32,000 nt of DNA from Candidatus Electrothrix yaqonensis. GTDB lineage: Bacteria > Desulfobacterota > Desulfobulbia > Desulfobulbales > Desulfobulbaceae. The notes beneath the pieces were generated by a model. It ran no database searches. It saw only the letters and a program-made list of their open reading frames with translations, and had not been told where the DNA came from. Below are positions 363 through 18,800 of this stretch, piece after piece. Location of the stretch: the NCBI GenBank assembly GCA_047651235.1, contig CP178758.1, positions 2,040,001 to 2,072,000 on the forward strand, written 5' to 3'. Each line of letters begins with the position of its first letter. Positions within the stretch are counted from its first letter, which is position 1. Made by a program: the position numbers and the translations under genes.

Positions 363-376
363 AATTTATCTTGTAT

Positions 377-1559: not shown

Positions 1560-1809
1560 ATTATGAGGGAATAAATGAGGGCAACAGGCGGGTGGCCGAT
1601 GCCCGGTACAATGCGTTATGGGTTGTGCAAGGTTTCCGGGGAGTGGGGCTTGATAGCGGCACATGGCTCGGTATGATGAGGGGGGAATGTGTAAGCAGGA
1701 AAGGTGATCTGACCCCGGTTTATGCTACGCTTGTATTCTGCTTGTTTTTTTGAATCCGATACGGTAATTTATTTAAGTTTATTAACCCAATTTATAAAAT
1801 TTATCCATT

Positions 1810-3062: not shown

Positions 3063-3083
3063 TAGCTTCAAAGAGAGAAAAGA

Positions 3084-3761: not shown

Positions 3762-4649
3762 AAATTTTCTTTCTGGCCAAGTTATATCCCAGAATATTAA
3801 TCGATGTATAGAATGAATATATCCGCAAGAGACTACAAAAGGATAGTCAACCTTAGTTAATTTTGATAAGTCAGATACTGTCTGCTTCAGGTATGAGAAG
3901 AGAAGCCGTATTTTCTTGTCTGAAATAGCAGTGTATTGATTTTCATTTCTTGTCAATAAATCAAACCCATGCTCTAATAAGTATTTTTTTGTTTGATATA
4001 TCCTAGTTGTATCATCCTGTTTCGAAAATACAATTTTGTTGTTCTTTTCTATATTAGATGCTATTTTTAAATATCTCCATTCAACACTCTTTCTGTATAT
4101 ATTTGTATTGTTAGCGTTTATCTTCCGCTTAATGATCCTGCCACTTCCAATATCCATACTAATAACTTCATGTGGGGATTGATCCCCTCTTTGCAGGTCA
4201 CTTGCATCAAAACCAGGGCCAACAATTTCAAATAATATATCATCCCGATTAAACAAACAGTTTATGCTGTAGATGTTATGCAGACAATTAGCTGGTTCAA
4301 GCCAAAATACAATTCTATTTTGCTCTATATACCTTTTTGTTTCTTGTTCAATATTTTCATGTTCAACGAGATATCCACCACGCGGATAAGGAGGCTTTTC
4401 TGGATTTTTATCATGTCTTAGCAGAAGACGGGTGAATCCATATCGTTTGGTGAAATACTCCACTTTTTCCAGAGAATATTCGGACCATTTTGTAATGATA
4501 ATACCGTTTAAAGTTGGAAAGTTTATTTTTCTCAAGAATAAGATGCTCAAAAACTTATTAAAACCGATCAAATCAGCTATTGCTTCATCAAGATCATCTT
4601 GATTGCCGTCAATCATATATGCATCTTTTAACATCATAGGATTATTCAA
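3744..4649 (-). CDS. Hypothetical 301-aa protein with a weak ATP-grasp / PEP-utilising N-terminal-like resemblance
   Basis: Long AT-rich ORF, convergent with the HIT gene and overlapping it by 18 nt. The only resemblance I can offer from memory is the segment LLLRHD...IVFWLEPAN...FEIVGPGFDASDLQRGDQSPHEV, which recalls PPDK_N-type ATP-grasp proteins. The confidence applies to the ORF being a real CDS. The functional call is weak, about 0.25. Confidence 0.6.
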   Translation of the reverse strand: MNNPMMLKDAYMIDGNQDDLDEAIADLIGFNKFLSILFLRKINFPTLNGIIITKWSEYSLEKVEYFTKRYGFTRLLLRHDKNPEKPPYPRGGYLVEHENIEQETKRYIEQNRIVFWLEPANCLHNIYSINCLFNRDDILFEIVGPGFDASDLQRGDQSPHEVISMDIGSGRIIKRKINANNTNIYRKSVEWRYLKIASNIEKNNKIVFSKQDDTTRIYQTKKYLLEHGFDLLTRNENQYTAISDKKIRLLFSYLKQTVSDLSKLTKVDYPFVVSCGYIHSIHRLIFWDITWPERKFSSQIK

Positions 4650-4748
4650 GGTGTATTTTCATTTTTTATATTTTTACTTGAAAGGATACAGTGTAACTAA
4701 ACAATTTTAGCTTTTACTACAGGTTACCATAATTCTTATCTGATCCTC

Positions 4749-4835
4749 CTACACCCAGTAATACAACACCGGCACGACAGAAACAGTCAAGATGGCGATG
4801 ACCATGCCCACCGAAAATGACGAAGAGGATCTTCA
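4749..4835 (-). repeat. RND pump 3'-end copy 4 (most diverged)
   Basis: The minus-strand frame reads ...SFSVGMVIAILTVSVVPVLYYWV* (TAG at 4749-4751). The intact C-terminus is ...PSFGGMIIAMLTVFVVPVLYCWVEEGRIR*. Confidence 0.7.
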
Positions 4836-5041
4836 GGTTCGCTTTCTCCGCTCCTTTATTTCAGTTACAATATCATCCAGACTCATCTTATCAAACTTTT
4901 TTTTCTCTCTTCCGTGTAGTCACCGAATCCGGTCGTGAACTGATTCAGAAAACGTATTGTGTCCGCCGTTCCGAGCCTGCTGCTTAACAGAGCAATAGCT
5001 TTGATATTTATATCGTTCAACGTTGTCGCCGTAGCACTCAT
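4833..5041 (-). pseudogene. Small antitoxin-like ORF interrupted at an A8 homopolymer
   Basis: The ATG at 5041 overlaps the stop of the upstream PIN remnant (ATGA). It reads MSATATTLNDINIKAIALLSSRLGTADTIRFLNQFTTGFGDYTEERKK, then stops at 4883. With 9 A instead of 8 at ~4894-4901, the frame would continue KKFDKMSLDDIVTEIKERRKRT* to 4833. Confidence 0.45.
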
Positions 5042-5228
5042 TTTTCCATCTCCTGTAACAGTTCAAGGATTGAAACAGTCCTGACTCCGAGATCGTCTAT
5101 CCTCTTCGCTTTTTTCAGAAAGTTGTCATCGCAGGTGCAGAAGAAATCAGCTTTCAGCATTTCCGCCGAGGCAAGATGCAGGGCATCAATCGGTCGCTGA
5201 ATGCAGCAGCAAGATATATTTTCATCAT
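5038..5228 (-). pseudogene. Decayed PIN-domain toxin gene
   Basis: The N-terminal piece MMKIYL... is frameshifted relative to the copy at ~11180 (MMKIYLDNCCI). The C-terminal frame PIDALHLASAEMLKADFFCTCDDNFLKKAKRIDDLGVRTVSILELLQEMEK* is PIN-like. The middle of the gene is missing. Confidence 0.5.
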
Positions 5229-5279
5229 GATCTCAGTATACAGTAATCACTCCATGCAGGTAAAGAGGCAAATCTGGAC

Positions 5280-5355
5280 TCATCCCGTTTTTTTCTCCTC
5301 CACCCAACAATACAACACAGGCACCACAAACACAGTCAGCATCGCAATAAGCATC
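5280..5355 (-). repeat. RND pump 3'-end copy 3
   Basis: ...MLIAMLTVFVVPVLYCWVEEKKTG* (TGA at 5280-5282). It has 3 mismatches in ~58 nt to 15850-15910. The flank 5199-5279 is shared with 11147-11232. Confidence 0.8.
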
Positions 5356-5364
5356 TTCTGAAAA

Positions 5365-5655
5365 ATGTATGAAAACTATGTTTTTACCGTGCCGGAGCAG
5401 AATGCGGATCTTCTTACATCCAACCATTTCTACCGGACCCAGGCCAAGACGGAAATTGATTTTATCACGGTCAGAGAACAGCAGTGTCGGCTGATTGAAG
5501 TGAAGGCGGGAATCTTTGACCGACCGGTCAAGGCGATGAGTGCTTTTGAGAAGAAATATCAGGGGCAATTTGCCGAAATCAGCAAGACTGTTGTCAACAG
5601 GTCGTGTCTTGCCCGGAAGAAAGGGTTTCGTTTTCTTCCGGCATGGTTATTGTGA
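5365..5655 (+). pseudogene. 3' fragment of an AAA+ ATPase gene (DUF4143-type C-terminus)
   Basis: YENYVFTV...HFYRTQAKTEIDFITV...RLIEVKAG matches the C-terminal fENfv...ywRt..g.EvDfv...iEvK signature of DUF4143 ATPases. The ATPase domain is absent, and the fragment begins right at the 5355 junction. Confidence 0.55.
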
Positions 5656-5816
5656 AAATGAACACAGCGGCATTCTTCTGAGGCTGATAGAAAAATACGC
5701 TGACCTGCCTATGGACTTGGCGAACACATGGGGTTCGCCCCTACTTCATTGTATTGATGAGTTTGTCGATATCCACAGATGGGTCGACAACAGGATGTAA
5801 TTGTTCTCTCAGGCCC

Positions 5817-5972
5817 TTAAACTCTTGCAGGGCAACCAAAACCTTCTTGCCCCTTGCTGGATCCGACTGTTTTAGAGCCTTTTTTTGTATGTTTGTCAAC
5901 GAGATATTCATAGAAGCCGAACAGCTCTCTTTTTGCGGCCTCGGGTAATATTTCCATGTTTAATTCTTTCAT
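5817..5972 (-). CDS. Small DUF2281-like (antitoxin-like) protein
   Basis: AGGAG lies 6 nt upstream of the ATG at 5972. The product reads MKELNMEILPEAAKRELFGFYEYLVDKHTKK.... The LPE..K.E...F.EFL pattern resembles DUF2281 proteins. Confidence 0.45.
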   Translation of the reverse strand: MKELNMEILPEAAKRELFGFYEYLVDKHTKKGSKTVGSSKGQEGFGCPARV

Positions 5973-6023
5973 AATCATCTCCTGACCCTGCATTTCAACG
6001 TTCTGGAAATATTTAGTATGTTC

Positions 6024-6052
6024 AGTATATTCAAATTCTCCCGGAAGCACAA
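6024..6052 (-). promoter_or_regulatory. Sigma70-like promoter (TTGTGC-17 nt-TATACT) reading toward the DUF2281-like gene
   Basis: The minus strand reads ttgtgc ttccgggagaatttgaa tatact. It is part of a 33-nt module repeated in inverted orientation at 9345-9377. Confidence 0.4.
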
Positions 6053-6298
6053 CCGTTGTGGTGGAACAGGGGATGCGGGTGGTTGCGGGGCGGCAGACGG
6101 TGGGATGGGGGAACGAGTTGCGATTATTTCTTTTTTTTGGGGGATTTGGTATTTGTCGGGGATAATTGAAGAGGATGGAGGGGGACAGCCCTTCGGGGGA
6201 AGGGCCGGGTTTATTGCATTCTTGGGCTTTATGTTCACGGTACCGGTGGGCATTGGAGGAGGTGATAAACGAGTTTGCTTAATTGGGCTCTGACCCCT

Positions 6299-6391
6299 AA
6301 TTACTCGTTCGGAAAGTTCTGAGCGCTGAATTTCCCGGCGGACAGCCGGGGTTGTACGCGCTCTTTTGTGCAGACCGGTGACATAGGAAAC
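6299..6391 (-). mobile_element. N-terminal fragment of an IS481-like transposase
   Basis: The frame reads VSYVTGLHKRARTTPAVRREIQRSELSERVI, like the HKNARTTP..R..I HTH N-terminus of IS481-family transposases. It breaks off at the GGGGTCAGAG motif (6280-6304). Confidence 0.4.
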
Positions 6392-6577
6392 CGGCAGGCC
6401 GAAGCCTCCCGCACAGCCCACCCAAAGGAAAAAGCACGCCATGCACTGGACATAAAAATACCGCCGGTTAATAAGTAAAAAAGGCGGTTGTCCGCCTATG
6501 TCTTTCGGGTTTCCAAGCCCGGCCCACGGATTTTGCCGTGGACGAAAATAAGGTACAGGGAAGGGGTGGGGGTGTCA

Positions 6578-6606
6578 ATAAAAAAGCCCCGGTGGTGGCC
6601 GGGGCT
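6578..6606 (-). terminator. Rho-independent terminator downstream of the 74-aa peptide gene
   Basis: The minus strand reads AGCCCCGG-CCACCA-CCGGGGCT followed by TTTTTATT. Confidence 0.7.
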
Positions 6607-6665
6607 GTGCAGGTTCTGTTATTGTTGGGATTCGTTTCTCATCCCAACTTACCGTGCCTTCAATA

Positions 6666-6890
6666 TTAGCGATTCAGGACTGGGTTCCTAAGAACTTCGG
6701 CCGGATTTTCCATTCCGCCGCAACCATCGCCGAAACACGATCCAGCACCAGCAATTTTCACCGCAATCGCTTCTATCATTTCCTCCTTAATTCCTTTTTG
6801 TTGCAAACCCTCTACGAGAGCACCGAGCATCTCTGCTTGATCTTTGCCAATTTCCTTAGCCGTAACTTCTCTCATTACCAATCTAGGCAT
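6666..6890 (-). CDS. 74-aa Cys-containing small protein, candidate RiPP precursor
   Basis: Strong SD (AGGAGG, 8 nt before the ATG at 6890). It has a helical, charged N-terminal two thirds ending ...AVKIAGAG, followed by SCFGDGCGGMENPAEVLRNPVLNR. It lies immediately downstream of the rSAM/SPASM gene on the same strand and is followed by a terminator. Confidence 0.6.
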   Translation of the reverse strand: MPRLVMREVTAKEIGKDQAEMLGALVEGLQQKGIKEEMIEAIAVKIAGAGSCFGDGCGGMENPAEVLRNPVLNR

Positions 6891-6918
6891 ATCAATTACC
6901 TCCTTTAAATTTATATTT

Positions 6919-6942
6919 AGTAAGTACCTTATTATACTTACT
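6919..6942. other. Perfect 8-bp-stem hairpin between the rSAM gene and the peptide gene
   Basis: agtaagta-ccttatta-tacttact. It sits at the AT-rich to GC-normal composition switch. Confidence 0.5.
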
Positions 6943-6948
6943 TTCTGC

Positions 6949-8271
6949 CTAGTAAATACTATCTACACTTATATCCACATCACGTTGCACACTCTCTAAT
7001 AAATTGTGCTTCGCAAAACATCGATGTGTATTTTTTTTATCTTTTTTTGTTTCCAAATAAAGTAAACATCCACCCATACAAAGAGGTAATTCCTTGCAAC
7101 TAATACATTCATTATCTTTAAATGGACTCCAATTATCCCAACTTGCCTGTGATCCAGTTTTATTTACAATAATTTCACCATGATCTGATAGCTCTCCATA
7201 TCTTTCATCCTTAACACCAAGATATTTTGTACAGCGATGAATATGTCCAAATGGATCAATCATAAAAGAATTTTTTTGATACCCCATACAAAACGAAGTA
7301 CAGGGTAATGCATAACCACGAGCTACTGTAAATCCTAAAGAATCTGACAACCGTCCTAAATCTTTCTCTAAATTCCAATAATCATCTGGTAATGTTGTTA
7401 ATGGTTCCATTTTATATATATCGTCAGGGGGTAATGCTTCACGAAAATTTAAAACTATATTATTTCTCAATGGATATAAATACTTTTCAAGTAACGTAGG
7501 GATACTATGCCGATTATGTTCATCAATATTAATTCTCACTATAACCCTTTCAAACAACTCACAATTTTTTTCTATATTATTTAAAATACGACTAAAACTA
7601 GGAAAACCACCTGTCCTAAATCGTCTTTCATCATGAATTTCTGGAGGGCCATCAATTGTTATTTGTATTTCATCTACATGATAACGTCTTAACATTTCAG
7701 CAGTACCACGCGATAATAAATATCCGTTTGTAGCTATACGAGCACTATATTTAACATTCTCAATATCACATTGTGTGATAAAAAAATTACTAAATTTTTC
7801 AATAAGTCGTGTTTGAAGAAGTGGCTCTCCTCCAAACCATGCTACACGAAACCGCTTTTTCCCAATAATATTCCGTGAAACGAACTTGTTGATTGAACTA
7901 CATAACTCATTAGAGATATGAACATCAATGTGTTTTTCATAACAATAAACACATCGAAAATTACATGCCAAAGTTAAAGCAATCCCTAATCCAAAAGCAT
8001 CACTACCAAGTCTAGCTGTCTGATGTATCTGCTCAACCCAACCTTTTTCATCAAACTCGTTCTCTACAATAAATCCATTTTTCTTAAGCAATTGTATTGA
8101 AGAATCACCTACATCAAATACAAATTGCTCTCCACCTTTTATTAATAAGTCACCCAATTGCTGTAACGGAGGTTTACTAATATTAAGTACACTTGTAGTA
8201 CGAGTATTAATTAAAAACTGCTCTCCAGAGGAAGAAGTCTTTACTGTATTAAATATAGAATTTTTTACCAT
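6949..8271 (-). CDS. Radical SAM enzyme with a C-terminal SPASM domain (peptide-maturase type)
   Basis: CNFRCVYCYE (CxxxCxxC) at about residue 103, GGEPLL, and C-terminal Cys clusters (CTSFC..., HRCTKY, ECISCKELPLCMGGC) typical of SPASM. The ~90-aa N-terminal extension resembles peptide-recognition regions of sactisynthase-like enzymes. The gene is very AT-rich. Confidence 0.85.
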   Translation of the reverse strand: MVKNSIFNTVKTSSSGEQFLINTRTTSVLNISKPPLQQLGDLLIKGGEQFVFDVGDSSIQLLKKNGFIVENEFDEKGWVEQIHQTARLGSDAFGLGIALTLACNFRCVYCYEKHIDVHISNELCSSINKFVSRNIIGKKRFRVAWFGGEPLLQTRLIEKFSNFFITQCDIENVKYSARIATNGYLLSRGTAEMLRRYHVDEIQITIDGPPEIHDERRFRTGGFPSFSRILNNIEKNCELFERVIVRINIDEHNRHSIPTLLEKYLYPLRNNIVLNFREALPPDDIYKMEPLTTLPDDYWNLEKDLGRLSDSLGFTVARGYALPCTSFCMGYQKNSFMIDPFGHIHRCTKYLGVKDERYGELSDHGEIIVNKTGSQASWDNWSPFKDNECISCKELPLCMGGCLLYLETKKDKKNTHRCFAKHNLLESVQRDVDISVDSIY

Positions 8272-8365
8272 TTGATATTGTTTATTTTTAGTTAGACGGT
8301 ATCGCTTTTAGACAAATTCAACTAGTCAATTTTGTATATAATTTAAAAAAACAAAAAAAACCTAA

Positions 8366-9040
8366 TCAATTTATCCCCCGAACCACAATCCCCTCCCCAA
8401 GCAGCTGCCCCCAAACCGTATCCCCGGCCCGGGCCGCATACCACTTCCCGTTATCCATAAAATAACAAGGTTGCTCGGTCACCCCCCACCCCTTCAGCTT
8501 CACAGCCTCCCAACGCTCCTCAGTGGGCTGCAACCGGGCCCGGATAAAACGCCCATGCCCCGGCAGATGAATAATCCTGTCCGACCCCTCCGCCTGCAGG
8601 GCCAACCCGCTTTCTCCCTCGGTCCCGATGATCAGCCAGCGGCCTTTCTCAATCTTTCCGTTATTCCAACGTAATGTACCTTCAACAAAGCATTTCTGCA
8701 AACCCTTTAACTTATATTCCTCCAACATAATCTGAGGAGAACCGGTCAGATAGCCCAGCATGGCGGATAATCCGCCCATAGAGCCCACCTGACTGCCAGC
8801 CCAGGCCAGGGCACCGAAAATCAATAAAACGCTGAACTCGGCCCCGCTCCCGGTCTTCAGCCGCCATGATCGCTTGAAAAAGACAAAGAGCTTATTGGTC
8901 CAGGGCGACATGGCCCGCACCCCGCTGACCGTGGCGCAGTCAGCCACCACATGGAGCAGGGCACCGACCCCGATAAAAAAGTCGTAAATTAGGGACAAAC
9001 CACGTTTTCCACTAACAACGTAAGAGTCAAAAAAACACAA
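8366..9040 (-). CDS. YdjM/DUF457-like membrane-bound metal-dependent hydrolase, N-terminally truncated, with an unknown ~110-aa C-terminal domain
   Basis: LLHVVADCATVSGVRAMSPW matches the second His/Asp motif of the YdjM family (SH...D..T..G...L.P). There is no ATG start: the ORF opens with TTG, and a stop lies 14 codons upstream. A possible promoter TTGACA-17-ATATTG lies at ~9085-9113 on the minus strand. Confidence 0.45.
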   Translation of the reverse strand: MCFFDSYVVSGKRGLSLIYDFFIGVGALLHVVADCATVSGVRAMSPWTNKLFVFFKRSWRLKTGSGAEFSVLLIFGALAWAGSQVGSMGGLSAMLGYLTGSPQIMLEEYKLKGLQKCFVEGTLRWNNGKIEKGRWLIIGTEGESGLALQAEGSDRIIHLPGHGRFIRARLQPTEERWEAVKLKGWGVTEQPCYFMDNGKWYAARAGDTVWGQLLGEGIVVRGIN

Positions 9041-9348
9041 ACACGAAAAACCAATTAACGAGCCCCGTATTCCGTGCTGCTATGATCCGAACAATATGAC
9101 AATTATGATTTTTTTGTCAAGAATAACTTTCTGATAGACTGCTGTCTTAAAAGGCCAAATCCCCTTGCGCCTCAAGGAAATTTATCAGATCAGCTCGCTC
9201 AAACACCTTGCAGAAAAAAATTACATCTCCCTTTTCATCTCGTCAGCACCCCAACCTCCCGTGCCACAGCCCCGAGCTTCTCGTTCAGGATAAAACCACA
9301 AACTACACCTCCTCGCTCCCCGACACATTCCCTGCCCAAAAGCACCGG

Positions 9349-9377
9349 TTGTACTTCCGGGAAAATAGGAATATACT
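9349..9377 (+). promoter_or_regulatory. Sigma70-like promoter (TTGTAC-17 nt-TATACT) upstream of the Rpn-family gene
   Basis: ttgtac ttccgggaaaataggaa tatact, ending 80 nt upstream of the ATG at 9457. It is part of the module shared with 6024-6056. Confidence 0.4.
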
Positions 9378-9456
9378 GCTGACATTGATCATGAAGAAAG
9401 AGCGCGTTATGCTCAACGGCACTGGAATACTCGGCAACCTGTAAAAAACATACATA

Positions 9457-10380
9457 ATGGCCAGCAAAGAACGCTATATCAACCTGTTCACTGATTACGG
9501 ATTTAAGAAGATCTTCGGTGAAGAACCGAATAAGAACCTGCTCCTGGATTTTCTCAACGAGCTGCTGAAAGAGGAACAGGGAGAGATCCGGGATTTGACC
9601 TATCTGAAGACCGAACAGCTCGGTGACACCGATATCGACCGCAAGGCGATCTTCGATCTCTACTGCGAGAATGAACGAGGTGAGAAGTTCATTGTCGAAC
9701 TCCAGAAGAGCAAACAGAATTTTTTCAAGGACCGAGCACTCTACTACTCCACCTTTCCCATCCGCGAACAGGCTGAACGAGGGGACTGGAATTTTAAACT
9801 TAAGGCCGTGTATACGGTGGCTATCCTGGACTTTGTCTTTGACGAGGATAAGAACCAACCGGAAAAGTACCGCTATGATGTTAAGCTGTCTGATATCGAA
9901 ACTAACCGGGTGTTTTATGATAAACTGACCTTCATCTATCTGGAAATGCCCAAATTCAGCAAGAACCTGGATGAGCTGAAGACTCGTTTCGATAAATGGC
10001 TGTACGTTATCAGGAATCTGAACCGGCTGGAACGAATACCGGACATGCTACGGGAACAGGTGTTTGAGCAGCTCTTTGATACTGCGGAGATTGCACGCTT
10101 TACCCCGGACCAAGTGCGTTCTTATGAGAAGAGTCTGAAATATTATCGGGACATGAAAAACTCCCTTGATACAGCCTTTGATGAGGGGAGAGTAGAAGGA
10201 AAAGAAGAAGGGAGAGTAGAAGGAAAAGAAGAAGGGAGAGTAGAAGGTAAGAATGAAAGAGATAGAGAAATAGTCCTCAACGGACTTCAGCAAGGATTTG
10301 ATATCAAAATGATTGCTCAGTTGACGGGCCTGTCAGAAGAAGAGATTAAGGAGATTGGACAAGAGCGCTCGGACGACTAA
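9457..10380 (+). CDS. Rpn-family recombination-promoting nuclease / PD-(D/E)XK putative transposase
   Basis: The N-terminus YINLFTDYGFKKIFGEEPNKNLLLDFLNELL and the ...DLYCENERGEKFIVELQ core are characteristic of this family (TIGR01784-type). The C-terminus carries EGRVEGKE repeats. Confidence 0.85.
   Translation: MASKERYINLFTDYGFKKIFGEEPNKNLLLDFLNELLKEEQGEIRDLTYLKTEQLGDTDIDRKAIFDLYCENERGEKFIVELQKSKQNFFKDRALYYSTFPIREQAERGDWNFKLKAVYTVAILDFVFDEDKNQPEKYRYDVKLSDIETNRVFYDKLTFIYLEMPKFSKNLDELKTRFDKWLYVIRNLNRLERIPDMLREQVFEQLFDTAEIARFTPDQVRSYEKSLKYYRDMKNSLDTAFDEGRVEGKEEGRVEGKEEGRVEGKNERDREIVLNGLQQGFDIKMIAQLTGLSEEEIKEIGQERSDD
10186..10257 (+). repeat. 24-bp tandem repeat x3 inside the Rpn-family gene
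   Basis: gggagagtagaaggaaaagaagaa occurs twice perfectly, plus a third unit with 3 mismatches. It encodes (G)RVEGKEE repeats in frame. Confidence 0.9.
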
Positions 10381-10403
10381 CAAGAAGAAAGAGTCGTTTA
10401 TCC

Positions 10404-10440
10404 GGTAAAAAGGGTCAGAGTAAAATTAGATTTTACTCTG
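10404..10440 (+). repeat. GGGTCAGAGTAAAAT motif, left copy, itself a perfect hairpin
   Basis: GGTAAAAAGGGTCAGAGTAAAATTAGATTTTACTCTG. The stem is CAGAGTAAAAT/ATTTTACTCTG (10416-10426 / 10430-10440) with loop TAG. It lies 24 nt after the Rpn gene stop. Confidence 0.85.
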
Positions 10441-10488
10441 CAACTAATCAAATATTACGACTCGAATAATCCCCTTTTCCCCTACTCA

Positions 10489-11103
10489 TCAAGCCCCGCG
10501 CATAGTCACCCGATTTCTTCGCGCCCCCTGTTCAGCAAACCGTACTTTTCTGTACACCTCGGCCACCGGCAATTCGCACTCTATTGATTCGACAGGAAGT
10601 ACATCTTCTTCACCTTGATATATCGTATACACCCAGGACTTATCGGCCTGCCGGGCAAATCGTTCCATCTTAAAGCTATACTGAGAAACTAGGATATACT
10701 CAGTAAATGAAGGGAGCTCCTGATAATGGGAGAACTTGTCTCCCCGATCATAGGCCTCGGTGCTGCCGGAAAGGATTTCTATAAGAACGACGGGATTCAG
10801 CAGCACATCGTTATGTTCATCCTCATACTTCTCTTTTTCACAGACAACAACGATATCCGGGTAGGAATACTTTTTCCTCTTTTGGACCTTCACCTTCATG
10901 TCGCTGGCAAAGACGCTGCACGGCTTCTCCAACAGCTGATTGCCCAGCAGGCGGACGATATTTGTCGAGATCTGGTTATGTTCCCGGCTTGCCCCGGCCA
11001 TGGCAAAGACTTCTCCGGCAAAGTATTCATGCCGGATATCACCATCACGTTCCCCGGTAAGATATTCTTCAGGGCTGATATGATGCTGCTCCTGCGCCTG
11101 CAT
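10489..11103 (-). CDS. Uma2-family (DUF820) putative restriction-type endonuclease
   Basis: Typical Uma2 pattern: ISPEEYL..ER....RHEYF.GEVFAMAG.S..HN.I..N....L, then YPD..VVC and ...P.VLIEILS.ST...D...K...Y. SD AGGAGA lies 7 nt upstream of the ATG. Confidence 0.85.
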   Translation of the reverse strand: MQAQEQHHISPEEYLTGERDGDIRHEYFAGEVFAMAGASREHNQISTNIVRLLGNQLLEKPCSVFASDMKVKVQKRKKYSYPDIVVVCEKEKYEDEHNDVLLNPVVLIEILSGSTEAYDRGDKFSHYQELPSFTEYILVSQYSFKMERFARQADKSWVYTIYQGEEDVLPVESIECELPVAEVYRKVRFAEQGARRNRVTMRGA

Positions 11104-11109
11104 AAGTTC

Positions 11110-11390
11110 TTCTCCTTGATTATATCGTTCAACGTTGTCGCCATAGGAATGCAGCAGTTATCAAGATATATTTTCATCATGATCTCAGTATACAGTAATC
11201 ACTCCATACAGGCAAAGAAACAAATCCACGATCATCCGACCCTCCCCTCCTCAACCCAACAATACAACACCGGCACCACAAACACCGTCAGTAGAGCAAT
11301 AATCATCCCACCAAAAGAAGGAATAGCCATAGGCACCATAATATCCGAACCCCGACCGGTGGAAGTCAGGATCGGGACGAGGATGGCAAT
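11110..11390 (-). repeat. RND pump 3'-end copy 2 plus shared downstream flank (PIN start and antitoxin start remnants)
   Basis: 11233-11390 reads IAILVPILTSTGRGSDIMVPMAIPSFGGMIIALLTVFVVPVLYCWVEEGRVG* (TGA at 11233-11235). It is ~90% identical over ~145 nt to 15834-15980. 11147-11232 matches 5199-5279, and 11121-11142 matches 5019-5040. Confidence 0.85.
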
Positions 11391-11422
11391 CTCCGATATT
11401 GAGTAGATAACATGCTGTTCAA

Positions 11423-11836
11423 TCAGACGATTTCAATGTAGAATTGGGAAACGACCCTGAGTCCCAAGTGGGCAACCATAGGTTCAAAGTCCCTGTCATC
11501 ATGCAGCAAAGAGAGCGTGTTCATGATACAGAATGTCCCGATGATCATATCAACAGTCTTCCTAACGGTAACACCTTTTTTCCGTAACGTTCTGTAGTTC
11601 TCGGCAGCCGCGACAGCAACAGCATATCCTCCCAATTCTTTACAGGGAAGTATGCTCATAACTTCTTTTGCCTGTGCATAGTCGCTGTCTTTCCGAAATC
11701 CCTGCAGCACCTCTGTCAGAATCAGATCCCCGGTATACACCGGAACCTGTAGCAGCAGTTGATCCAGCATTTCCGTCTGCCATGTTGCCTGACCGTTAAA
11801 ATAGTTTACCCACACTGAGGAATCGACTAGAATCAT
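11423..11836 (-). CDS. vapC: VapC PIN-domain toxin
   Basis: MILVDSSVWVNYF..., with conserved acidic residues (D5, E in LTEV, D in VDMI, DDRDF). It overlaps the upstream vapB stop by 1 nt. Confidence 0.85.
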   Translation of the reverse strand: MILVDSSVWVNYFNGQATWQTEMLDQLLLQVPVYTGDLILTEVLQGFRKDSDYAQAKEVMSILPCKELGGYAVAVAAAENYRTLRKKGVTVRKTVDMIIGTFCIMNTLSLLHDDRDFEPMVAHLGLRVVSQFYIEIV

Positions 11837-12027
11837 CAGTCCAGCCTCATTTTCTCAAGATCGCCCTCCCAGTGCAGTTTGCCTTTTAGCTGCCGGACGG
11901 CTTCCTGTCTTTTGACCTGGATCAGCAACCTCAATGCCTGATCTATAACACCTTTTTTGGTCTTGATACAGCTTAACCGCATTGCTTCCGCCATCAGGTT
12001 GTCATCAACAACAATATTTGTTCTCAT
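11836..12027 (-). CDS. vapB: VapB antitoxin
   Basis: MRTNIVVDDNLMAEAMRL...KKGVIDQALRLL is the classic VapB N-terminus. SD AAGAGG lies 5 nt upstream of the ATG at 12027. The ORF track extends to 12075, but that start lacks an SD. Confidence 0.8.
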   Translation of the reverse strand: MRTNIVVDDNLMAEAMRLSCIKTKKGVIDQALRLLIQVKRQEAVRQLKGKLHWEGDLEKMRLD

Positions 12028-12165
12028 TGTGACCTCTTTAAAATTGATGTGTATTATTTTTTGTTTTATACACATTGGAAGCCGCTGTCAATGAGGCTTT
12101 GTACGCTGGATCGATTCTCTTGTTCTTGATAGTTGGGGATTATCTTTTTCTTGTGAGGAGAAATT

Positions 12166-12510
12166 ATGAAACCGGTTCCGCAATGGGAGAACAGTTCTCC
12201 GCACGCCCGGCATTTCCTGCATCAGGTGCGGGAGGAAGTGCATCGTCTGCTGCCTGATGCGAAAGTAATTCTGCACGGTCCCCGTGTCCGCAAGGAAGCC
12301 CGGCAGGATTCTGACTGGGATTTTTTGATCATTGCTGATTATCCGTTGGACAGAGAGATTATAACAAAGCTGAAGGATGGGCTGTATGATATTGAACTGG
12401 AAAATGATGAGGTGGTGAGCAGTATTATACAGAGCAGGCAGGAGTGGTCTTCGCCTGCATACGATGCCTTGCCGTTCAAAAAGGCGGTGGAGAGAGGGAT
12501 AGAATTGTGA
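12166..12510 (+). CDS. Small nucleotidyltransferase (MNT-like), no adjacent HEPN partner
   Basis: SD GAGGAG precedes the ATG. It reads ...VILHGPRVRKEARQDSDWDFLII (a variant of GSRARG...SDxD). It is the intact paralog of the remnant at 100-362. Confidence 0.7.
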   Translation: MKPVPQWENSSPHARHFLHQVREEVHRLLPDAKVILHGPRVRKEARQDSDWDFLIIADYPLDREIITKLKDGLYDIELENDEVVSSIIQSRQEWSSPAYDALPFKKAVERGIEL

Positions 12511-12520
12511 ATTACAGATT

Positions 12521-12544
12521 TAATTTTACTCTGACCCCTTTTAC
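12521..12544 (-). repeat. GGGGTCAGAGTAAAAT motif, right copy, inverted relative to 10405-10428
   Basis: The reverse complement GTAAAAGGGGTCAGAGTAAAATTA matches GTAAAAAGGGTCAGAGTAAAATTA at 23 of 24 positions. Confidence 0.85.
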
Positions 12545-12828
12545 TTATAATAAAAAAACAAAAGTTAAAAATATGTGGTGCCAAGAATGATTTTCCAAAA
12601 AGCCTAAAGTATTGATTTTAGGGGGATTGTTACCTCGGTGTCGCAAAGTTGGGTTATGCAATTAAAAGTATAATGTACATGAACGCACTGAAAGCATCAT
12701 TTTTAAAAATGAAACAATTACAAGATGCTGCCTTCTCTGCGTAACATGAGATACTATCTTATGGATGATTGCCGTAAAAGTCAAACTCTGGACAGTCTCC
12801 CCGGCAAAGCCGAGGAGGAGGGGATATT

Positions 12829-15738
12829 CTAATTATCAGAAGAGGCAACCAAGGGCGAAATTTCGATGAGGGTACTGTCGCTTTTGTCCTGATAGGTTGC
12901 TTTGATGGTTAGCTGGTAATCGGTCGGTTGTGCCTCCGGTGGTTGGTTGAGCTTGAGGGTTGCTGTCCCACCCAATATCACGATCTGTGCATTCGCCGAA
13001 TTAGGAGTAGGGGTCACTTCCCAGATCACCTTGTCTCCTAGGCTCTCGACCGTCCCATCGCTGTAGAACCCGGTGCAGTAGTAGGAGTAGCTCCCGCTGG
13101 CGGGTTCAGAATTATTCCCTCCGTAGAGCTGATTGCGCTGCGTAATCTGTAACCCGGTGAGCGTTTTCTCCGGCGCATTGACGGTGTAGCTGTAGGTGCC
13201 CGATACAGTATCCGCATTGGCCCCTAGGAGGGAGGCTGTGACAGTGACTGTACCGGAAGTCAGCGGTATGCCTATCCCTGAAGCATAGGGGACGTTGAGA
13301 AGATTCATGCTCCCGGTCGAATTACTGATACTCCAGTTGATGAGCTGCCGGACGGCATTGTAGGTACCTGTACCACCGCTATCCGTAGCTGTTGAGACTG
13401 TCTGACTCGAAGATGTCGAAGGATTGGTGAAACTCTTTGTCTTTCCTGATCCATAGCCGACTTCGAAGGATCCCCCGATGTTGATTTCATAGGTCACATT
13501 GGCATCGAACTGCATAGACCCAGCTGGCGGCGTGAAAGTTTTCGGTGAACCATCTGAGATCGGATAAGTTACCGGCTGCGCGGTTTTAGGTTCCAATATC
13601 TCAATGTTCGTCACCACCCCATACTGTGCGTACTCGCTGAGGACGAAGTTTGTTCCGGCGATGCCGTCAGGTGCTGCCGTCGCAGGATGAGATGCACCTG
13701 ATACAGCAAATGGTGTGACAGTAACGGTTGGCCCGAATGTGCGGGCGAGACAGTAGGGGTTTTTATCATCGGATTTCTTGTGATCTGTAAGGTCTCTGGT
13801 CTTCTCATAGTTCAATCGGAACTCATAATAATCATCCTTATAAATTTGATAGCCAGTTGAGCTGCTCGGATCGCCAAGCAATTCATAGTACGACATCCAC
13901 AAGTCCCCATGTTCTCCATTTTCTCCATTATCGTTGAATGCCTCAGCGTTATAAAATCCGAGGTAGGGAAGAGCGGTCGTTGTTGCGCCATAATCGGGAA
14001 CGGCGTTAAATGAATTGTGACTTATCGATTCGTCTCGGGTCGGACAATACGCAGCGCGTGCCTGTAGCGATAAGAATTCTCCGTAGGTAGGCAAGTGCCA
14101 GTCATCGTACACCACAACCGATCCGTCGGGCATAATCACCGATTCCGTAAATGACGAAGCGTTCGCATTGGCGTTATCATAGGTATCCGGCTCCCATATT
14201 TGGTCAAACCACATGACACCGTTTTCGAAGTCTGGAGTGATTCCTTCAACACTGTTGCGAAACGGCAGGAGTTGCCTCTGTGCTTTTTGGGACGCGATAT
14301 TGCTCGCAACATTTTTAAGGATCGCATTGATACCGTCCACGGGATTTTCATAGACAAGGTAGTTGTGCGCTTGTTCGGAGTAGATATTGAGGGTCGCGCT
14401 CTGTAGATAGGCAAACTGTTGATAAACCGGTAAGACTCTATCTATGACACGGTTTTGCCGCCACGGGAAGTAGAGTACATTACCGGGACAGTCTATTCCC
14501 AACTCCTGATTGAGCACAATATTTTGCACCCCGAGAATGATGCCGGTTCTGCCTGTGAGCTGTAGCTCGGCATCGTCCAGAATCGTTTGATAATCTGGTG
14601 CCTTGATGACTGCGACGAGATCGTTGATATTGGTCTGAACGGGCTGATTCAGCGGCGGCTGGGAACCGTTCTGGATAGCGGTCAGGGTTGCAGTTATACT
14701 GTTTACGAGAGTGACCTGCGCTCCTGTGGGATTGCCGTTATTGATATCAATGATAGGGAAAAACTCGGAAACCAACGATTTGATTTTTTTCTCTATCGAA
14801 TCGTCGGTGATCTCACTCTGTAGCTGTGTCAGAGACTGTTGCACAGCACTTAATTGTTCACTGATCTCCTGTAGTTGACCCGTTGTGCCGTAGTTCAGTC
14901 CTAACTGATTGGCCGCCCATCCCAAGATACCGTTCGCTACATCACCTACGACGTTACCCGTTATGCCCTGAGCCACCCCGAACAGGAACTGCCCTCCCAC
15001 GCTGGTGGGGGATGCCAGAAAAATTACAGGTGGATCGAACAGTTGGTTCATGTCAAGATTGGAAGCCGGGGTGAAACCGATACGATCGGTCGTTTCGAGA
15101 CGCACCGCTTCCACAGCATCGGAAAGTCCGGTTTCAAGGCCAGTGATCGGATGGTGGAGCTGATCTAGACTGATCAGAAATCGCCTTGGCTGCGGACTGC
15201 TGTACTGAAACTCCCGAGCAAGGGATACAATGTTGTTTTTGTAGGTGACCCAACCTTCGTTTTCCGATGCTTTACGGAAAAAAGCCAAGGAGGAAAAGAC
15301 CGGGTTGGGCTCCCTCAGGCTGATACCAAGTTGAAGGCTGTCGGGCAGAACAAGTGCCTTTTTGACCAGAGCCTCTGCCTGGGAAAGTGTCAGATCCGGC
15401 TCCGCCTGCATCACCTCGCTCGCCAGTGTACTCAACACCGAGATATGCACCTGCCGCTTCGTTGGGTCAAAATCCCGCAACTGTGCGGAAAATTGAATAC
15501 CCGAACCGGGTACCGTCGCATAAGCCCGAAAATCCTTCGGAAGGGACAGATGATCGAAAAACACTATCCCCTGCCGAGAGGTTGTCCCCCTAGCCAGTTT
15601 CTGTCCATTCAGGGACTCTATCTGGAGTGTGGCACCCTTCACATTACCACCCAGAAAAACATGCCCGACCACAGTGGCGGGGGGAGAAAGTGTCTCCTGA
15701 TTGTCGTTACTGTTACATTTTGTTCTCCTAATGTACAT
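12829..15738 (-). CDS. 969-aa multidomain protein of unknown function (adhesin/toxin-like), no signal peptide seen
   Basis: Long uninterrupted ORF with SD AGGAGA-N6-ATG. By eye it has an N-terminal beta-sandwich-like region, a Q/L-rich helical middle, a DDWHLPTYGEFLSL motif (DUF1566-like WRLPT..EL), an S/T/G-rich beta region, and a C-terminal Big_2-like segment (YYCTGFYSDGTVESLGDKVIWEV). Confidence 0.8.
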   Translation of the reverse strand: MYIRRTKCNSNDNQETLSPPATVVGHVFLGGNVKGATLQIESLNGQKLARGTTSRQGIVFFDHLSLPKDFRAYATVPGSGIQFSAQLRDFDPTKRQVHISVLSTLASEVMQAEPDLTLSQAEALVKKALVLPDSLQLGISLREPNPVFSSLAFFRKASENEGWVTYKNNIVSLAREFQYSSPQPRRFLISLDQLHHPITGLETGLSDAVEAVRLETTDRIGFTPASNLDMNQLFDPPVIFLASPTSVGGQFLFGVAQGITGNVVGDVANGILGWAANQLGLNYGTTGQLQEISEQLSAVQQSLTQLQSEITDDSIEKKIKSLVSEFFPIIDINNGNPTGAQVTLVNSITATLTAIQNGSQPPLNQPVQTNINDLVAVIKAPDYQTILDDAELQLTGRTGIILGVQNIVLNQELGIDCPGNVLYFPWRQNRVIDRVLPVYQQFAYLQSATLNIYSEQAHNYLVYENPVDGINAILKNVASNIASQKAQRQLLPFRNSVEGITPDFENGVMWFDQIWEPDTYDNANANASSFTESVIMPDGSVVVYDDWHLPTYGEFLSLQARAAYCPTRDESISHNSFNAVPDYGATTTALPYLGFYNAEAFNDNGENGEHGDLWMSYYELLGDPSSSTGYQIYKDDYYEFRLNYEKTRDLTDHKKSDDKNPYCLARTFGPTVTVTPFAVSGASHPATAAPDGIAGTNFVLSEYAQYGVVTNIEILEPKTAQPVTYPISDGSPKTFTPPAGSMQFDANVTYEINIGGSFEVGYGSGKTKSFTNPSTSSSQTVSTATDSGGTGTYNAVRQLINWSISNSTGSMNLLNVPYASGIGIPLTSGTVTVTASLLGANADTVSGTYSYTVNAPEKTLTGLQITQRNQLYGGNNSEPASGSYSYYCTGFYSDGTVESLGDKVIWEVTPTPNSANAQIVILGGTATLKLNQPPEAQPTDYQLTIKATYQDKSDSTLIEISPLVASSDN

Positions 15739-15753
15739 TTTGTTCTCCTAATG
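15714..15753 (-). repeat. Perfect 20-bp tandem duplication carrying SD+ATG at the 5' end of the 969-aa ORF
   Basis: tacattttgttctcctaatg x2 (15714-15733, 15734-15753). On the coding strand each unit is CATTAGGAGAACAAAATGTA. Confidence 0.95.
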
Positions 15754-15833
15754 ATGGCAGTGGATTTAATTCAAGTTGTGATAACATCATTCACTCATTA
15801 TATAGCAATAGGCAAAGAAACAAAAATCCAAAA

Positions 15834-18800
15834 TCATCTGATTCTCCCCTCCTCAACCCAACAATACAACACAGGCACCACAAACACTGTCAGCATCGCA
15901 ATAATCATCCCGCCAAAAGAAGGAATAGCCATAGGCACCATAATATCCGAGCCCCGCCCAGTGGAGGTCAGGATCGGAATCAGGGCCAGGATGGTGGTGG
16001 CCGAGGTCATCAGGGCCGGGCGGATGCGGCGTTGGGCACCGTGCAGGACCATGTCGCGGATGTCCTGCCGGGTTCTCTCCTTCTTATCCTTGAGGCGGGC
16101 CTTGGATTCATCCAGATAGGTGGCCATGAGCACCCCATCATCAGTGGCAATGCCAAAGAGGGCCAGGAAGCCCACCCAGATAGCTACAGAGAGGTTGATG
16201 CTCTGGACCTGAAAGAGCCTGCGCATATCAGTATCAAAGAGAGAGAAATCCAGGAACCAATCCTGACCATAGAGCCAGATCATCAGAAAGCCGCCGGACC
16301 AGGCCACCAGAATGGCGGAAAAGACCATCATGGTGGTGCCCAGGGAACGGAATTGAAGGTAGAGAATCACCATGATTACCAGCAGGGCCAGGGGCAGGAT
16401 CACCGACAGCCGTTTCTGGGCCCGGACCTGGTTCTCGTAATTACCGGCAAAGGTGTAGGAGACACCGGGCGGAATCCGCAGCTCACCGCTATCAATCTTC
16501 TCCTGAAGAAATTGGCGGGTCTGCTCCACCACATCCACTTCAGCAAAGCCCTTCTTTTTATCAAAGAGCACATAACCGGTCAGGAAGGTGTCCTCGCTCT
16601 TGATCATCTGCGGGCCGCGCACATAGCGGATATCGGCCAGCTGGTTCAGGGGGATATGCTCGCCCGTGGAGGCGGTGACCAGGATTCGCTCCAAGGCCTC
16701 CAGGGAGTCCCGCCGTTCCCGCTGATACCGCACCCGGACCGGATAGCGTTCCCGGCCTTCCACGGTCATGGTGGTCATTTTGCCGCCCACTGCCGCTGCA
16801 ATCACCTCCTGGACCTTGCCCAGCCGGATGCCGTGGCGGGAGATGGCCTCCCGGTCAATGACGATCTCCAGATAGGGCTTGCCCACCACCCGGTCGGCCA
16901 GCACGGTCAGGGGAGAAACTGAGGGAACCTGTTTGACCAGTCGTTCCAGGTCCAGGCCCACCTGCTCGATGGTCGCCAGATCAGGCCCTTTGACCTTGAT
17001 GCCCATAGGGGCGCGCATGCCGCTCTGGAGCATGACGATGCGGGCCGCAATGGGCTGGAGTTTGGGTGCCGAGGTCACACCGGGGATCTCGGCGGCCTGA
17101 ACGATCTCGTTCCAGATGTCATCAGTGTCTTCAATGCCGGGCCAGGGCTCGCGGTCCGGGTTGATGGTCGGATCAAGGGCGGTCCGCCAGAGGCGGAAGG
17201 GTCTGCCTTCAGCACCAGAGGCATCAGAAGCGGCAGGAATGAGCCGTCCCCTCTCATCCCGCTCAAAACGTCCCTGCACCAGATAGGGCATGCCGTCCCC
17301 GGCCTTGAGCAGCACGCCTGCCGGGCTGCGGCAGAAATCCTTCCGGTCCGCCCGCCAGGAAAAAAGCAGGCGATTTCCCTGTTCATCCTTCAGGTATTCG
17401 GGATGGTAATTGATAATGGTTTCAATCATGGACAGGGGCGCAGGGTCCAGCGGGGTCTCGGCCCGGCCCAGCTTGCCCACCGCCGATTCCACCTCCGGGA
17501 TGGCGGTGATCGCCCGGTCCTGAGCCGCCAAGACTTCCTGAACCTCGGTCAGCCCGGCATGGGGCATGGTGGTGGGCATGTAGAGAAAAGAACCTTCATC
17601 CAGGAAGGGCATGAACTCCCGACCCAGACCGGGAAAGCTGTGCGCCAGACTCATCATCGGCTTGGCCCGACGGATACTGTCCGGCAGCCAGCCGGTGAGC
17701 TTCGGTACACCCAGCCAGACCATGGCCCCGCCGATGACCACCAGCAAGGGGAAAATCAGAAAAATCAGCTTCCAGCGGAGAAACAGGCGCAACAGGTGCG
17801 GATAGAGCCACTGAAAAACCTGGAAAGATCCCAGCAGGCCGCCGATAAGCAGGGCGACAAAGAAGAAGTTCGCCCATGCCCCTTGCTCGATTCCCAGAGG
17901 CTGCCAGCTGCGGGCCAGCAGGACCGTGACCAGCAGAATCATGATCCAGTTTTCTATCCGGCTGAGGATAGGCAGTACCTTCGGGGGCAGGAACTGGAGG
18001 ATCAGGCGGTAAACTCCCAGGCCGAGCAGGATCAGGGCCAGGAGATGGACCTTCCAGGCCAGCACAGCCCCGGCAATGATCAGCAGGCCAGGCAGGACAA
18101 AACGGATCTTCCAGGAGGCCTTACCTGCTTTTTTGCGGCGAAAAAGACTATGGGCCAGGGGCGGCAGCACGGTCAGGGCGATGACCACCGAGGCGATCAG
18201 GGCAAAGGTCTTGGTGTAGGCCAGGGGCCTGAAGAGCTTGCCTTCGGCGGCCTGCATGGTGAAGACCGGCAGGAAGCTGACAATGGTGGTGGCCACGGCA
18301 GTGAGTACGGCACTGCCCACCTCCACCGAGGCATCGTAGATGATCCGCAGGGTGGATTCCTCGGGATTGGCCTTGTCCAGCCGGGTGAGAATATTCTCGC
18401 AGATAATGATGCCCATGTCCACGATGGTGCCGATGGCAATGGCGATGCCGGACAGGGCCACCACGTTGGCATCCACGCCAAAGACCTTCATGCCGATAAA
18501 GGCCATGAGCACGGTCAGGGGCAGGAGGGCCGAGATGAGCAGGGACGAGCGCAGGTGCATGACCGTGACCAGGATGACGATGATGGTGATCAGGATTTCC
18601 TCGCTCAGGGCGATCTTCAGAGTGTCCAGGGTTTCATGGATCAGGCCGGAACGGTCGTAGAAGGGCACAATGGTGACCTTGCTTATGGTGCCGTCGGCCA
18701 GGGTTTTGCTGGGCAGGCCCGGTGATATCTCCCGGATCTTCTCCTTGATCCGTTCAATGGCGGCCAGCGGATTATCGCCGTAGCGCACCACTGCCACGCC

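Follow-up and report, generated by a model that had tools for sequence, protein, structure and literature searches.

Variable toxin-antitoxin and anti-phage islands beside conserved genes are widespread, and how those without a mobility gene grow is mostly a matter of conjecture. Where islands accumulate in series, as in the accretion of integrative and conjugative elements (ICEs) and cis-mobilizable elements (CIMEs) at the fda site of Streptococcus thermophilus and in the islands at tRNA and tmRNA genes, the attachment (att) repeats are of constant extent, and some of the elements are integrase-less, relying on an integrase provided in trans. Routes that dispense with a recombinase have been proposed for two kinds of polymorphic toxin loci. 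For the Rhs "C-terminal displacement" arrays the proposal is homologous recombination by way of circular molecules (Jackson et al. 2009; PMC2935791), and for the effector-immunity arrays of the Vibrio cholerae type VI secretion system (T6SS) it is homology-facilitated illegitimate recombination, with an integron-like polarity in the absence of an integrase also being noted (Kirchberger et al. 2017; PMC5361080). Here we compare with these systems a locus of Candidatus Electrothrix yaqonensis, in which the 3' end of an ordinary RND efflux permease gene is found four times in succession with different cargo between the copies. The window, i.e., the whole stretch that was analyzed, comprises 32,000 nucleotides (nt) of contig CP178758.1 (positions 2,040,001 to 2,072,000), and all coordinates below are those of the window unless a related locus is named. 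The locus is probably a displacement array that arose by serial homology-anchored insertion and displacement.

Displaced RND 3' ends in the window and in related loci

The four RND 3' ends all lie on the minus strand and each retains a stop codon of its own. They had been placed in this way by a sequence-only reading of the window, and their four translations agree with the sequence; the one correction concerns copy 2, which is present as described with its stop codon ending at 11232 instead of 11233. Together with the intact gene they are as follows, divergence being given where indicated as the proportion of synonymous differences (pS):

15834..19745, minus strand: intact RND permease gene, 1303 amino acids (aa), CusA/CzcA family; its last ~150 nt (15834-15984) are copy 1
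11232..11390, minus strand: copy 2, displaced RND 3' end of 52 codons plus stop, 86-89% identical to copy 1
5280..5355, minus strand: copy 3, displaced RND 3' end of 25 codons plus stop
4749..4835, minus strand: copy 4, RND 3' remnant that directly adjoins the end of an antitoxin gene and has diverged most; pS 0.79 relative to copy 1

A repeat search returned one four-member family of direct repeats (15824-15909, 11222-11307, 5270-5355 and 4721-4806), in addition to a 161-nt pair (D3; 15824-15984 versus 11222-11382) at 89% identity. Further, the degenerate 26-mer GTNGTGCCNGTGYTRTATTRYTGGGT matches at exactly the four copies, with no match in 100 dinucleotide-preserving shuffles. Copies 1 and 2 differ at 22 of 159 nt, 14 of these differences falling at third codon positions and nine substitution types being represented, while copy 3 is 95% identical to copy 1 over 61 nt and the identity of copy 4 is ~75-78% over ~72 nt.

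The likeness between the copies extends past their stop codons. Each of copies 1-3 is followed by the remains of one spacer and of a PIN/antitoxin pair, and copies 2 and 3 additionally have in common 76 nt of flanking sequence at 88% identity (D7), including the PIN start, as well as the start of a small open reading frame (ORF), all of which upholds the shared flanks that had been reported from the sequence alone. The flanking remnants are:

15784..15833, minus strand: decayed native RND-PIN spacer that follows copy 1 and reaches the PIN ATGATG; the cargo starts beyond it
11123..11231, minus strand: native spacer followed by PIN nt 1-34, which are joined to antitoxin nt about 8-33, i.e., a doubly deleted PIN/antitoxin remnant
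4836..5279, minus strand: native spacer with a PIN gene that has lost an internal part and an antitoxin-like ORF with a frameshift

The sequence-only reading had called for a relative with an empty site, in which the RND stop would be followed by the PIN/antitoxin pair. Such a site is found in the complete genome of Ca. Electrothrix aestuarii (CP159373.1; L100), where a single RND gene end is succeeded by a 51-nt spacer, an intact PIN gene and its 67-aa partner (the antitoxin). This spacer is the flank common to copies 1-3 of the window; the decayed version after copy 1 aligns to it with a score of 28, as against 15.3 +/- 2.5 (maximum 26) for shuffled sequences. The double deletion at 11123..11231 was deduced by comparison with the intact pairs of L100, L005 and the independent metagenome contig L102, and the region 4836..5279 is 91-92% identical to the PIN C-terminal region and antitoxin of L005 and L100.

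Stacks of a similar kind, but with other cargo, exist in five related loci (L005, L095, L091, L093 and L101) and in one Verrucomicrobiia genome (the metagenome-assembled genome (MAG) Co_bin.226; L029). Together with the empty site, they bear out the earlier view of the RND 3' end as a serial-insertion hotspot whose copies delimit stacked blocks. Downstream of the RND gene the related loci are arranged as follows, with CBASS denoting the cyclic oligonucleotide-based antiphage signalling system, CD-NTase its cGAS/DncV-like nucleotidyltransferase, OMP an outer membrane protein and MFP a membrane fusion protein:

L005: a PIN-like gene and 53 aa, then copy 2 with PIN-antitoxin, then copy 3, making three RND ends
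L095: VapBC and a truncated PIN-like gene, then a 420-nt RND remnant with PIN-antitoxin
L091: CBASS-type genes (CD-NTase, patatin), a 123-nt remnant, then OMP-YHS-MFP
L093: distal locus as in L091; the remnant is broken into three, together covering at least 500 nt and containing stops
L101, proximal part: spacer with PIN nt 1-23, VapBC-like genes, then an 800-nt remnant fused to a PIN C-terminus with antitoxin
L101, distal part: an 822-aa gene, MNT, DUF4143, then a 123-nt remnant with PIN-antitoxin
L096 and L099, both close relatives: other cargo; no remnant within 5.5 and 9 kb, respectively
L102 and L103: only about 20-25 nt of RND tail before the PIN-antitoxin pair
L029, 13493-15067: three ends of an orthologous RND gene (58% identity), each followed by a small membrane-protein ORF (165, 145 and 185 aa)

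Comparison of these loci allows the nature of the displaced copies to be examined. Their upstream limits lie about 20-25, 76, 87, 123, 135, 158, 195, 420, at least 500 and 800 nt before the stop, and on the cargo side the junctions after the intact gene range from inside the last RND codons to PIN nt +34. With limits scattered in this manner, there is no constant att-like core. Some remnants, as in L093, have suffered internal deletions. Similarly, the junction between DUF4143 and copy 3 in the window equals the L101 junction minus 703 nt and, since L101 keeps 123 nt of RND at the homologous junction, copy 3 has been shortened by a later deletion. The flank of copy 2, in turn, corresponds to an L102-like arrangement of PIN-antitoxin, remnant and Uma2 with two small deletions.

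The divergence of the remnants is that of alleles. The 800-nt remnant of L101 differs from the RND gene of the same locus at 74 positions, 59 of them third codon positions (pS 0.32; proportion of nonsynonymous differences, pN, 0.02), with one frameshift, and the corresponding values for the L095 remnant and its resident end are pS 0.36 and pN 0.06. The orthologous RND genes of the window and L005 diverge to the same level (pS 0.40, pN 0.012). Further, the L101 remnant is nearer to the allele of the window (91.6%) than is the RND gene of L101 itself (87.5%), and the C-terminal 45-130 residues are conserved between copies. Because the divergence is mostly synonymous, the remnants are best seen as displaced, once-functional alleles as opposed to in-place duplicates; judging from their sequences, each appears to have been until recently the working end of an RND gene of another allele class. 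The sequence-only reading had held that tandem RND paralogs in related genomes would speak against serial insertion. The short copies do turn out to be deletion remnants of longer copies; however, the longer ones are diverged, formerly functional alleles (pS ~0.32-0.36, pN 0.02-0.06) and not paralogs duplicated within the genome.

With respect to relative age, copy 4 is old, as indicated by its being the most diverged and by its antitoxin junction being shared with the independent contig L102, and the earlier proposal that it is the oldest of the four is probably correct. The order of the blocks is not strictly chronological, since insertion into distal copies is possible.

The intact RND genes are themselves mosaics. 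The gene of the window is 95% identical to that of L099 over the last 195 nt, but 84-90% identical over the preceding 1 kb, and L096 and L099, which have different cargo, are 92-96% identical over alignment columns 2600-3400 as against 83-87% in the last 400-500 nt. The upstream RND flanks of the window, L005, L088 and L100 have no detectable mutual similarity. Conserved synteny upstream of RND was accordingly rejected as a core-gene boundary, the four flanks being dissimilar, and because these flanks share nothing among the four relatives, both ends of the RND gene are recombination boundaries. A separate observation concerns the 5' end of the gene: L096 contains at 14-121 a 36-40-codon 5' fragment of an L005-like allele (91% nt identity), ~330 nt upstream of its intact RND gene (from 445). 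As a mirror image of the 3' remnants, this suggests the replacement of a whole allele with an imprecise left end. Additionally, the central part of the gene (columns 1600-2000; about 17750-18150 in the window) occurs in two allele classes, one comprising the window and L005 and the other L088, L096 and L099; the identity between the classes is 68-70% over columns 1600-1800 and 78-82% over columns 1800-2000, as compared with 83-94% elsewhere.

The assignment of the anchor gene is supported by TIGR00914 (777.8 bits; cutoff 701) and Pfam ACR_tran, and the nearest RND proteins, from MAG S24.Bin023 and Ca. E. aestuarii, share 91-92% amino-acid identity with it. The genes on its right are of the housekeeping type and encode CinA, a hybrid histidine kinase, MoeA, an SLT/LysM lytic transglycosylase and a class A penicillin-binding protein, and to its left (1-15800) is lower-GC DNA with addiction- and defence-type genes. 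The GC content is 60-64% in the body of the RND gene as opposed to ~46% at its end and in the cargo, and the GC content at third codon positions (GC3) of the gene falls from 0.78 overall to 0.50-0.60 over the final 120 nt. This fall was rejected as proof of foreign origin: it is real, but involves only 40 codons and is taken as weak.

Searches for a dedicated recombination machinery were negative. The Phage_integrase, Resolvase, rve and DDE families have no match in the 38 ORFs of 1-16200 or in the other window genes scanned, and no integrase, resolvase or transposase is present among the Pfam-scanned or pre-annotated cargo ORFs of L005, L091, L093, L095, L096, L099, L100, L101 and L102. The earlier statement that the window is free of recombinases hence holds for tyrosine and serine recombinases and DDE transposase families, but needs to be qualified by an Rpn-family "putative transposase" at 9457-10380. 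The Logan short-read contigs of the same sample, being short and ending at repeats, did not extend the window leftward, where a recombinase was sought, and exact-protein look-ups with the RND protein and the product of a 301-aa gene of the window gave no match. A tRNA, tmRNA or other known RNA as the true target was likewise rejected, as no tRNA, tmRNA or Rfam family was found in the window. The same applies to transposon or insertion-sequence ends around the blocks: an inverted-repeat scan of 1-16200 gave four pairs, none flanking the copies, and there is no transposase but the Rpn/PDDEXK_2 protein. Diversity-generating retroelements are characterized by a nearby reverse transcriptase and adenine-specific repeat differences; no reverse transcriptase was found among the Pfam-scanned window ORFs, and the 22 differences between copies 1 and 2 are not adenine-specific. 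Integrons are defined by the IntI integrase with its attI site and by structured attC sites between cassettes. Here no IntI was found and the inter-block repeats are RND coding fragments, no attC-specific search having been run.

Insertion and displacement weighed against other explanations

This body of evidence is most compatible with serial homology-anchored insertion and displacement. The ancestral state would have been RND, 51-nt spacer, PIN and antitoxin, as persists in Ca. E. aestuarii. Incoming DNA from related lineages would carry the RND 3' part together with the downstream genes of the donor; its left junction would form by homologous recombination inside RND, whereby an intact hybrid pump gene would be kept, and its right end would be sealed by illegitimate joining inside the resident RND 3' region. 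The intermediate could be linear DNA, as in homology-facilitated illegitimate recombination, or a circle integrating via a single Campbell-type crossover. Both would fit, and repeated Campbell-type single crossovers, which the sequence-only reading had offered as a fallback, are viable. Each event would place new cargo beside the RND stop and push the resident RND end, spacer, PIN/antitoxin pair and older cargo one step downstream, and the polarity of the array, with the newest block next to the gene, would follow from this. The displaced ends, which in young insertions can reach at least 800 nt, and the PIN/antitoxin copies made redundant would subsequently be cut by deletions to the 76-158-nt stubs of the window. 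Neither a site-specific recombinase nor an att core would be required. Indeed, the loci can be viewed as a remarkably full natural series, from the empty site through young insertions with 800-nt and 420-nt ends to older ones trimmed to 20-160 nt.

Several considerations weigh against this account. It rests on end products, no intermediate or event having been observed, and it is from these that we infer the molecular mechanism, including whether the intermediate was linear or circular and how the DNA entered, as well as the precise sequence of events. In experiments, homology-facilitated illegitimate recombination usually deletes recipient DNA rather than duplicating the anchor, and anchor duplication may for that reason need a circular intermediate or a break-repair variant. 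Three deletion or illegitimate junctions were inspected for microhomology and gave no clear signature, and a recombinase could be encoded elsewhere in the genome. Insertion and displacement also explains neither how cargo was first joined to the RND stop in the donors nor why the same RND orthologue is used in two phyla. Finally, replacements that left no remnant would escape any count of the events.

An explanation by site-specific accretion would have att-flanked elements without an integrase, in the manner of CIMEs beside ICEs or of satellites, served by a tyrosine or serine recombinase in trans, use the RND 3' end as attB and supply a replacement end, as does prophage e14 at icd. The direct, same-strand copies with their own stops that delimit the blocks are expected under such a scheme, as are the last ~75 nt common to all copies, the fall of GC3 over the last 120 nt of RND, the use of the same gene in two phyla and replacement ends that differ mainly at synonymous sites (pS 0.32-0.36, pN 0.02-0.06), as in icd/icdC (PMC13626634). 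However, with upstream limits between ~20 and 800 nt and internal deletions there is no fixed crossover point, the proximal limits vary too, and the cargo is a mosaic as opposed to a set of discrete elements, with the same VapBC and PIN-like modules having different neighbors. With no integrase found in the window or the related loci scanned, accretion of this type is unlikely, although it may account for individual events, and the version favored in the sequence-only reading, a tRNA-like att site with a short replacement end, is not supported, in view of the same scatter, deletions and lack of an integrase. It is similarly doubtful that the RND 3' end is more than a chance homology anchor and serves in at least two phyla as a dedicated site for capturing cassettes independently of a recombinase (or with one acting in trans), an integron analog without the integron integrase that builds polar arrays of toxin-antitoxin, defence and small-membrane-protein genes; arrays of this kind may be co-transcribed from the pump gene. 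Still less probable is in-place tandem duplication of RND, or of its 3' part with PIN/antitoxin, followed by pseudogenization and deletion, with the cargo arriving separately. Such duplication would accommodate the long remnants of relatives (420 and 800 nt), including one broken by internal deletions, and a repeated unit that takes in the spacer and PIN/antitoxin pair in the manner of a segmental duplication, and an appearance of foreign origin could have come about afterwards, if the intact copy underwent allelic exchange. Yet the remnants are ~9-14% removed from the resident gene nearly always at synonymous sites (the above-noted 59 third positions of 74), unlike a decaying duplicate, their divergence equals that of orthologs from different lineages, and the L101 remnant lies nearer to the allele of the window than does the RND gene of L101.

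The stack could also be an assembly artefact, in which strain variants of one locus were falsely chained through a shared repeat. The Logan short-read contigs from this sample are interrupted at exact repeats and inside RND, owing to which they independently confirm the order of the window over short distances and not at long range, and the exact RND protein has no record in the Logan collection. The contigs that end within copies or shared flanks do so inside the longest exact repeats there. On the other hand, short-read contigs of SRR31704081 are 100% identical to the window and independently span several unique junctions, namely those between VapC and copy 2 (L003, 11319-12328), between the copy 1 stop and a 969-aa gene (L004, 12443-15885) and between the PIN/antitoxin remnant and Uma2 (L002, 10218-11191). 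Moreover, each of the copies is marked by substitutions found in no other and by unique sequence to either side, and the exact shared stretches in the alignments of copy 1 with copy 2 and of copy 2 with copy 3 are short (roughly 40-50 nt). Similar stacks are seen in five independent assemblies from other samples, and L101 repeats the order of elements in the window (RND, VapBC, RND remnant and, further on, DUF4143, remnant, PIN-antitoxin). An artefact is hence extremely improbable. In a separate observation, the contig L001 (73.7 kb), covering the housekeeping side, stops at 19141, 600 nt into the RND gene; this and the unrecorded RND protein may point to RND variants among the strains of the sample, which would agree with the mosaic alleles.

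Cargo and other features of the window and its relatives

The contents of the blocks, with assignments from Pfam for block 1 and from Pfam and NCBIfam for block 2, are:

11391..15783, minus strand: block 1 cargo, probably the newest, between the copy 1 spacer and copy 2
12829-15738, minus strand: 969-aa protein of unknown function, block 1
12166-12510, plus strand: MNT nucleotidyltransferase, block 1
11836-12075, minus strand: VapB, block 1
11423-11836, minus strand: VapC/PIN, block 1
5356..11122, minus strand: block 2 cargo
10489-11103, minus strand: Uma2 nuclease, block 2
9457-10380, plus strand: Rpn/PDDEXK_2, "recombination-promoting nuclease/putative transposase", block 2
8366-9040, minus strand: YdjM-like protein, block 2
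6949-8271, minus strand: radical SAM/SPASM maturase, block 2
5365-5655, plus strand: 3' fragment of a DUF4143 ATPase gene, block 2
1..4748, no strand assigned: distal variable region with a 301-aa unknown, a HIT-like protein, a 280-aa unknown, NUDIX, a HEPN-MNT pair and an MNT 3' fragment

Several of these modules recur elsewhere in other settings. The VapBC module of block 1 is 90% identical to the one directly after the RND stop in L095, the Uma2 gene of block 2 is 93% identical to that following PIN-antitoxin in L102, and the DUF4143 piece shares 94.5% identity with the complete gene of L101. The MNT 3' fragment at 158-362 repeats 12291-12495 of the complete MNT gene of block 1, with 93% identity, on the plus strand, as a direct repeat 12 kb apart. 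L100 and L101 have two or three related MNT pieces each, and L005 has one. RND is hence not the only gene with partial copies in the island, and MNT may be a second recombination anchor.

Within the distal variable region the GC content is 32-38% across 2000-4800, and the low-GC cluster at 1810-4649 comprises NUDIX (matching the PADLOC candidate family PDC-S07), the 280-aa membrane protein, the HIT-like protein and the 301-aa protein without a family match; it is possibly an uncharacterized defence module. A comparably low-GC patch (30-34%) in block 2 harbors the radical SAM/SPASM gene, which resembles maturases of ribosomally synthesized and post-translationally modified peptides, its best NCBIfam match being TIGR04463, below cutoff; a 3.5-kb stretch around this gene is 100% identical in a second run, SRR31704082. 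The C-terminal part of the neighboring Rpn/PDDEXK_2 gene contains 12-nt tandem repeats of the EGRVEGKE type (10180-10257), and the contig L002 ends inside this tract (10218).

A palindromic element, GGGGTCAGAGT...ACTCTGACCCC, is present at 10405-10445, after Rpn, and at 12518-12544, after MNT, the two being inverted with 27 nt that are 93% complementary. In L005 this element (about 16010-16055) lies directly against RND copy 3, at its upstream edge. It may be a repetitive extragenic palindrome (REP)-like or terminator hairpin that marks the ends of modules. Outside the island, diverged repeats of 117-141 nt (families D4 and D9) occur within the 871-aa SLT/LysM lytic transglycosylase gene (27096-27604).

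Among the relatives, the cargo of L091 (561-3367, oriented) is CBASS-like and encodes a SEC-C-motif protein, a CD-NTase (SMODS/DncV-like) and a patatin phospholipase. Beyond the remnant L091 has genes for an OMP, a YHS-like protein and an MFP, with which a Cus-type pump is usually associated and which are not next to RND in the window. In L029 the junctions cut into the cassette ORFs and the differences between the copies are mostly synonymous; a 50-nt stretch (GSDVMIPMAIPSFGG region) is shared without change by the three copies, with its flanks differing at synonymous sites. Homologs of the three L029 cassette genes were not encountered beside RND in any of the 80 loci fetched. Runs of six 21-nt tandem repeats, forming heptad-like small ORFs, follow a displaced copy in both L005 (15760-15906) and L029 (16076-16261), a likeness that may be coincidence because the two repeat sequences are unrelated.

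Comparison with known arrays and islands

The RND array differs in kind from several systems that it resembles in outline. As in prophage e14 at icd, an incoming alternative 3' end preserves the protein-coding gene, what is displaced is left as a C-terminal pseudogene on the far side and the differences are mostly synonymous or conservative (PMC13626634). However, e14 encodes its own integrase, recombines at a fixed att core and is excised precisely upon SOS induction, unlike the RND array, for which no integrase was found, the remnants vary 40-fold in length and the inserts are mosaics of small modules. The serial stacking of units separated by repeated 3' ends of the target is shared with ICE/CIME accretion and with tandem tRNA/tmRNA islands, from which the RND array departs in the variable extent of the repeat and in the lack of a tRNA or a detected integrase. 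With integron arrays it has in common the polar growth, the newest unit standing by the fixed anchor; further, many integron cassettes are toxin-antitoxin systems, and the units of L029 are single small ORFs. Unlike in integrons, there is no IntI, the repeats are coding-sequence fragments and not short attC sites (with no dedicated attC search), and the junctions cut ORFs. The RND array is thus not of the e14, ICE/CIME or integron type, because the defining recombinase and fixed sites were tested for and not found.

The closer parallels are with arrays of polymorphic toxins. Like the Rhs arrays, the locus consists of an intact gene followed by direct repeats of its 3' core that vary in length, some with frameshifts, and that lead into different downstream DNA; a GC-rich core likewise contrasts with an AT-rich end and downstream DNA, and displaced ends are common to several strains (PMC2935791). 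It is distinguished from them by its anchor, a CusA/CzcA metal-efflux permease as opposed to a polymorphic toxin, and by a C-terminus that is conserved, with only the last 3-9 residues varying, instead of being swapped for a toxin domain. Further, the variable downstream gene content consists of toxin-antitoxin pairs, CBASS and unknowns rather than tip/immunity pairs; no cognate pairing of this kind was found after the displaced ends, which are followed by PIN/antitoxin, VapBC, Uma2, CBASS and unknown genes. Like the V. cholerae T6SS arrays, the locus receives new modules beside a conserved upstream anchor, with older genes and 3' ends (those of effectors in V. cholerae) being shifted downstream (PMC5361080). 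In those arrays, however, selection is thought to retain the immunity genes, whereas no functional link between anchor and cargo is evident at RND, and the displaced RND pieces include the anchor gene's own conserved end.

What is new here is that probable displacement arrays occur on an ordinary gene that does not encode a toxin, and carry toxin-antitoxin and defence genes, in relatives of cable bacteria and independently in Verrucomicrobiia, all of which is explicable by known processes. Ordinary genes could in this way become growth points for islands of defence and addiction modules, and stacked, synonymously diverged 3' pseudo-ends of variable length offer a practical signature for recognizing such growth points and the order of their layers. 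The locus hence supports homology-anchored insertion and displacement, so far described mainly from polymorphic toxin loci such as Rhs and T6SS, as a general route that is also available to ordinary genes.

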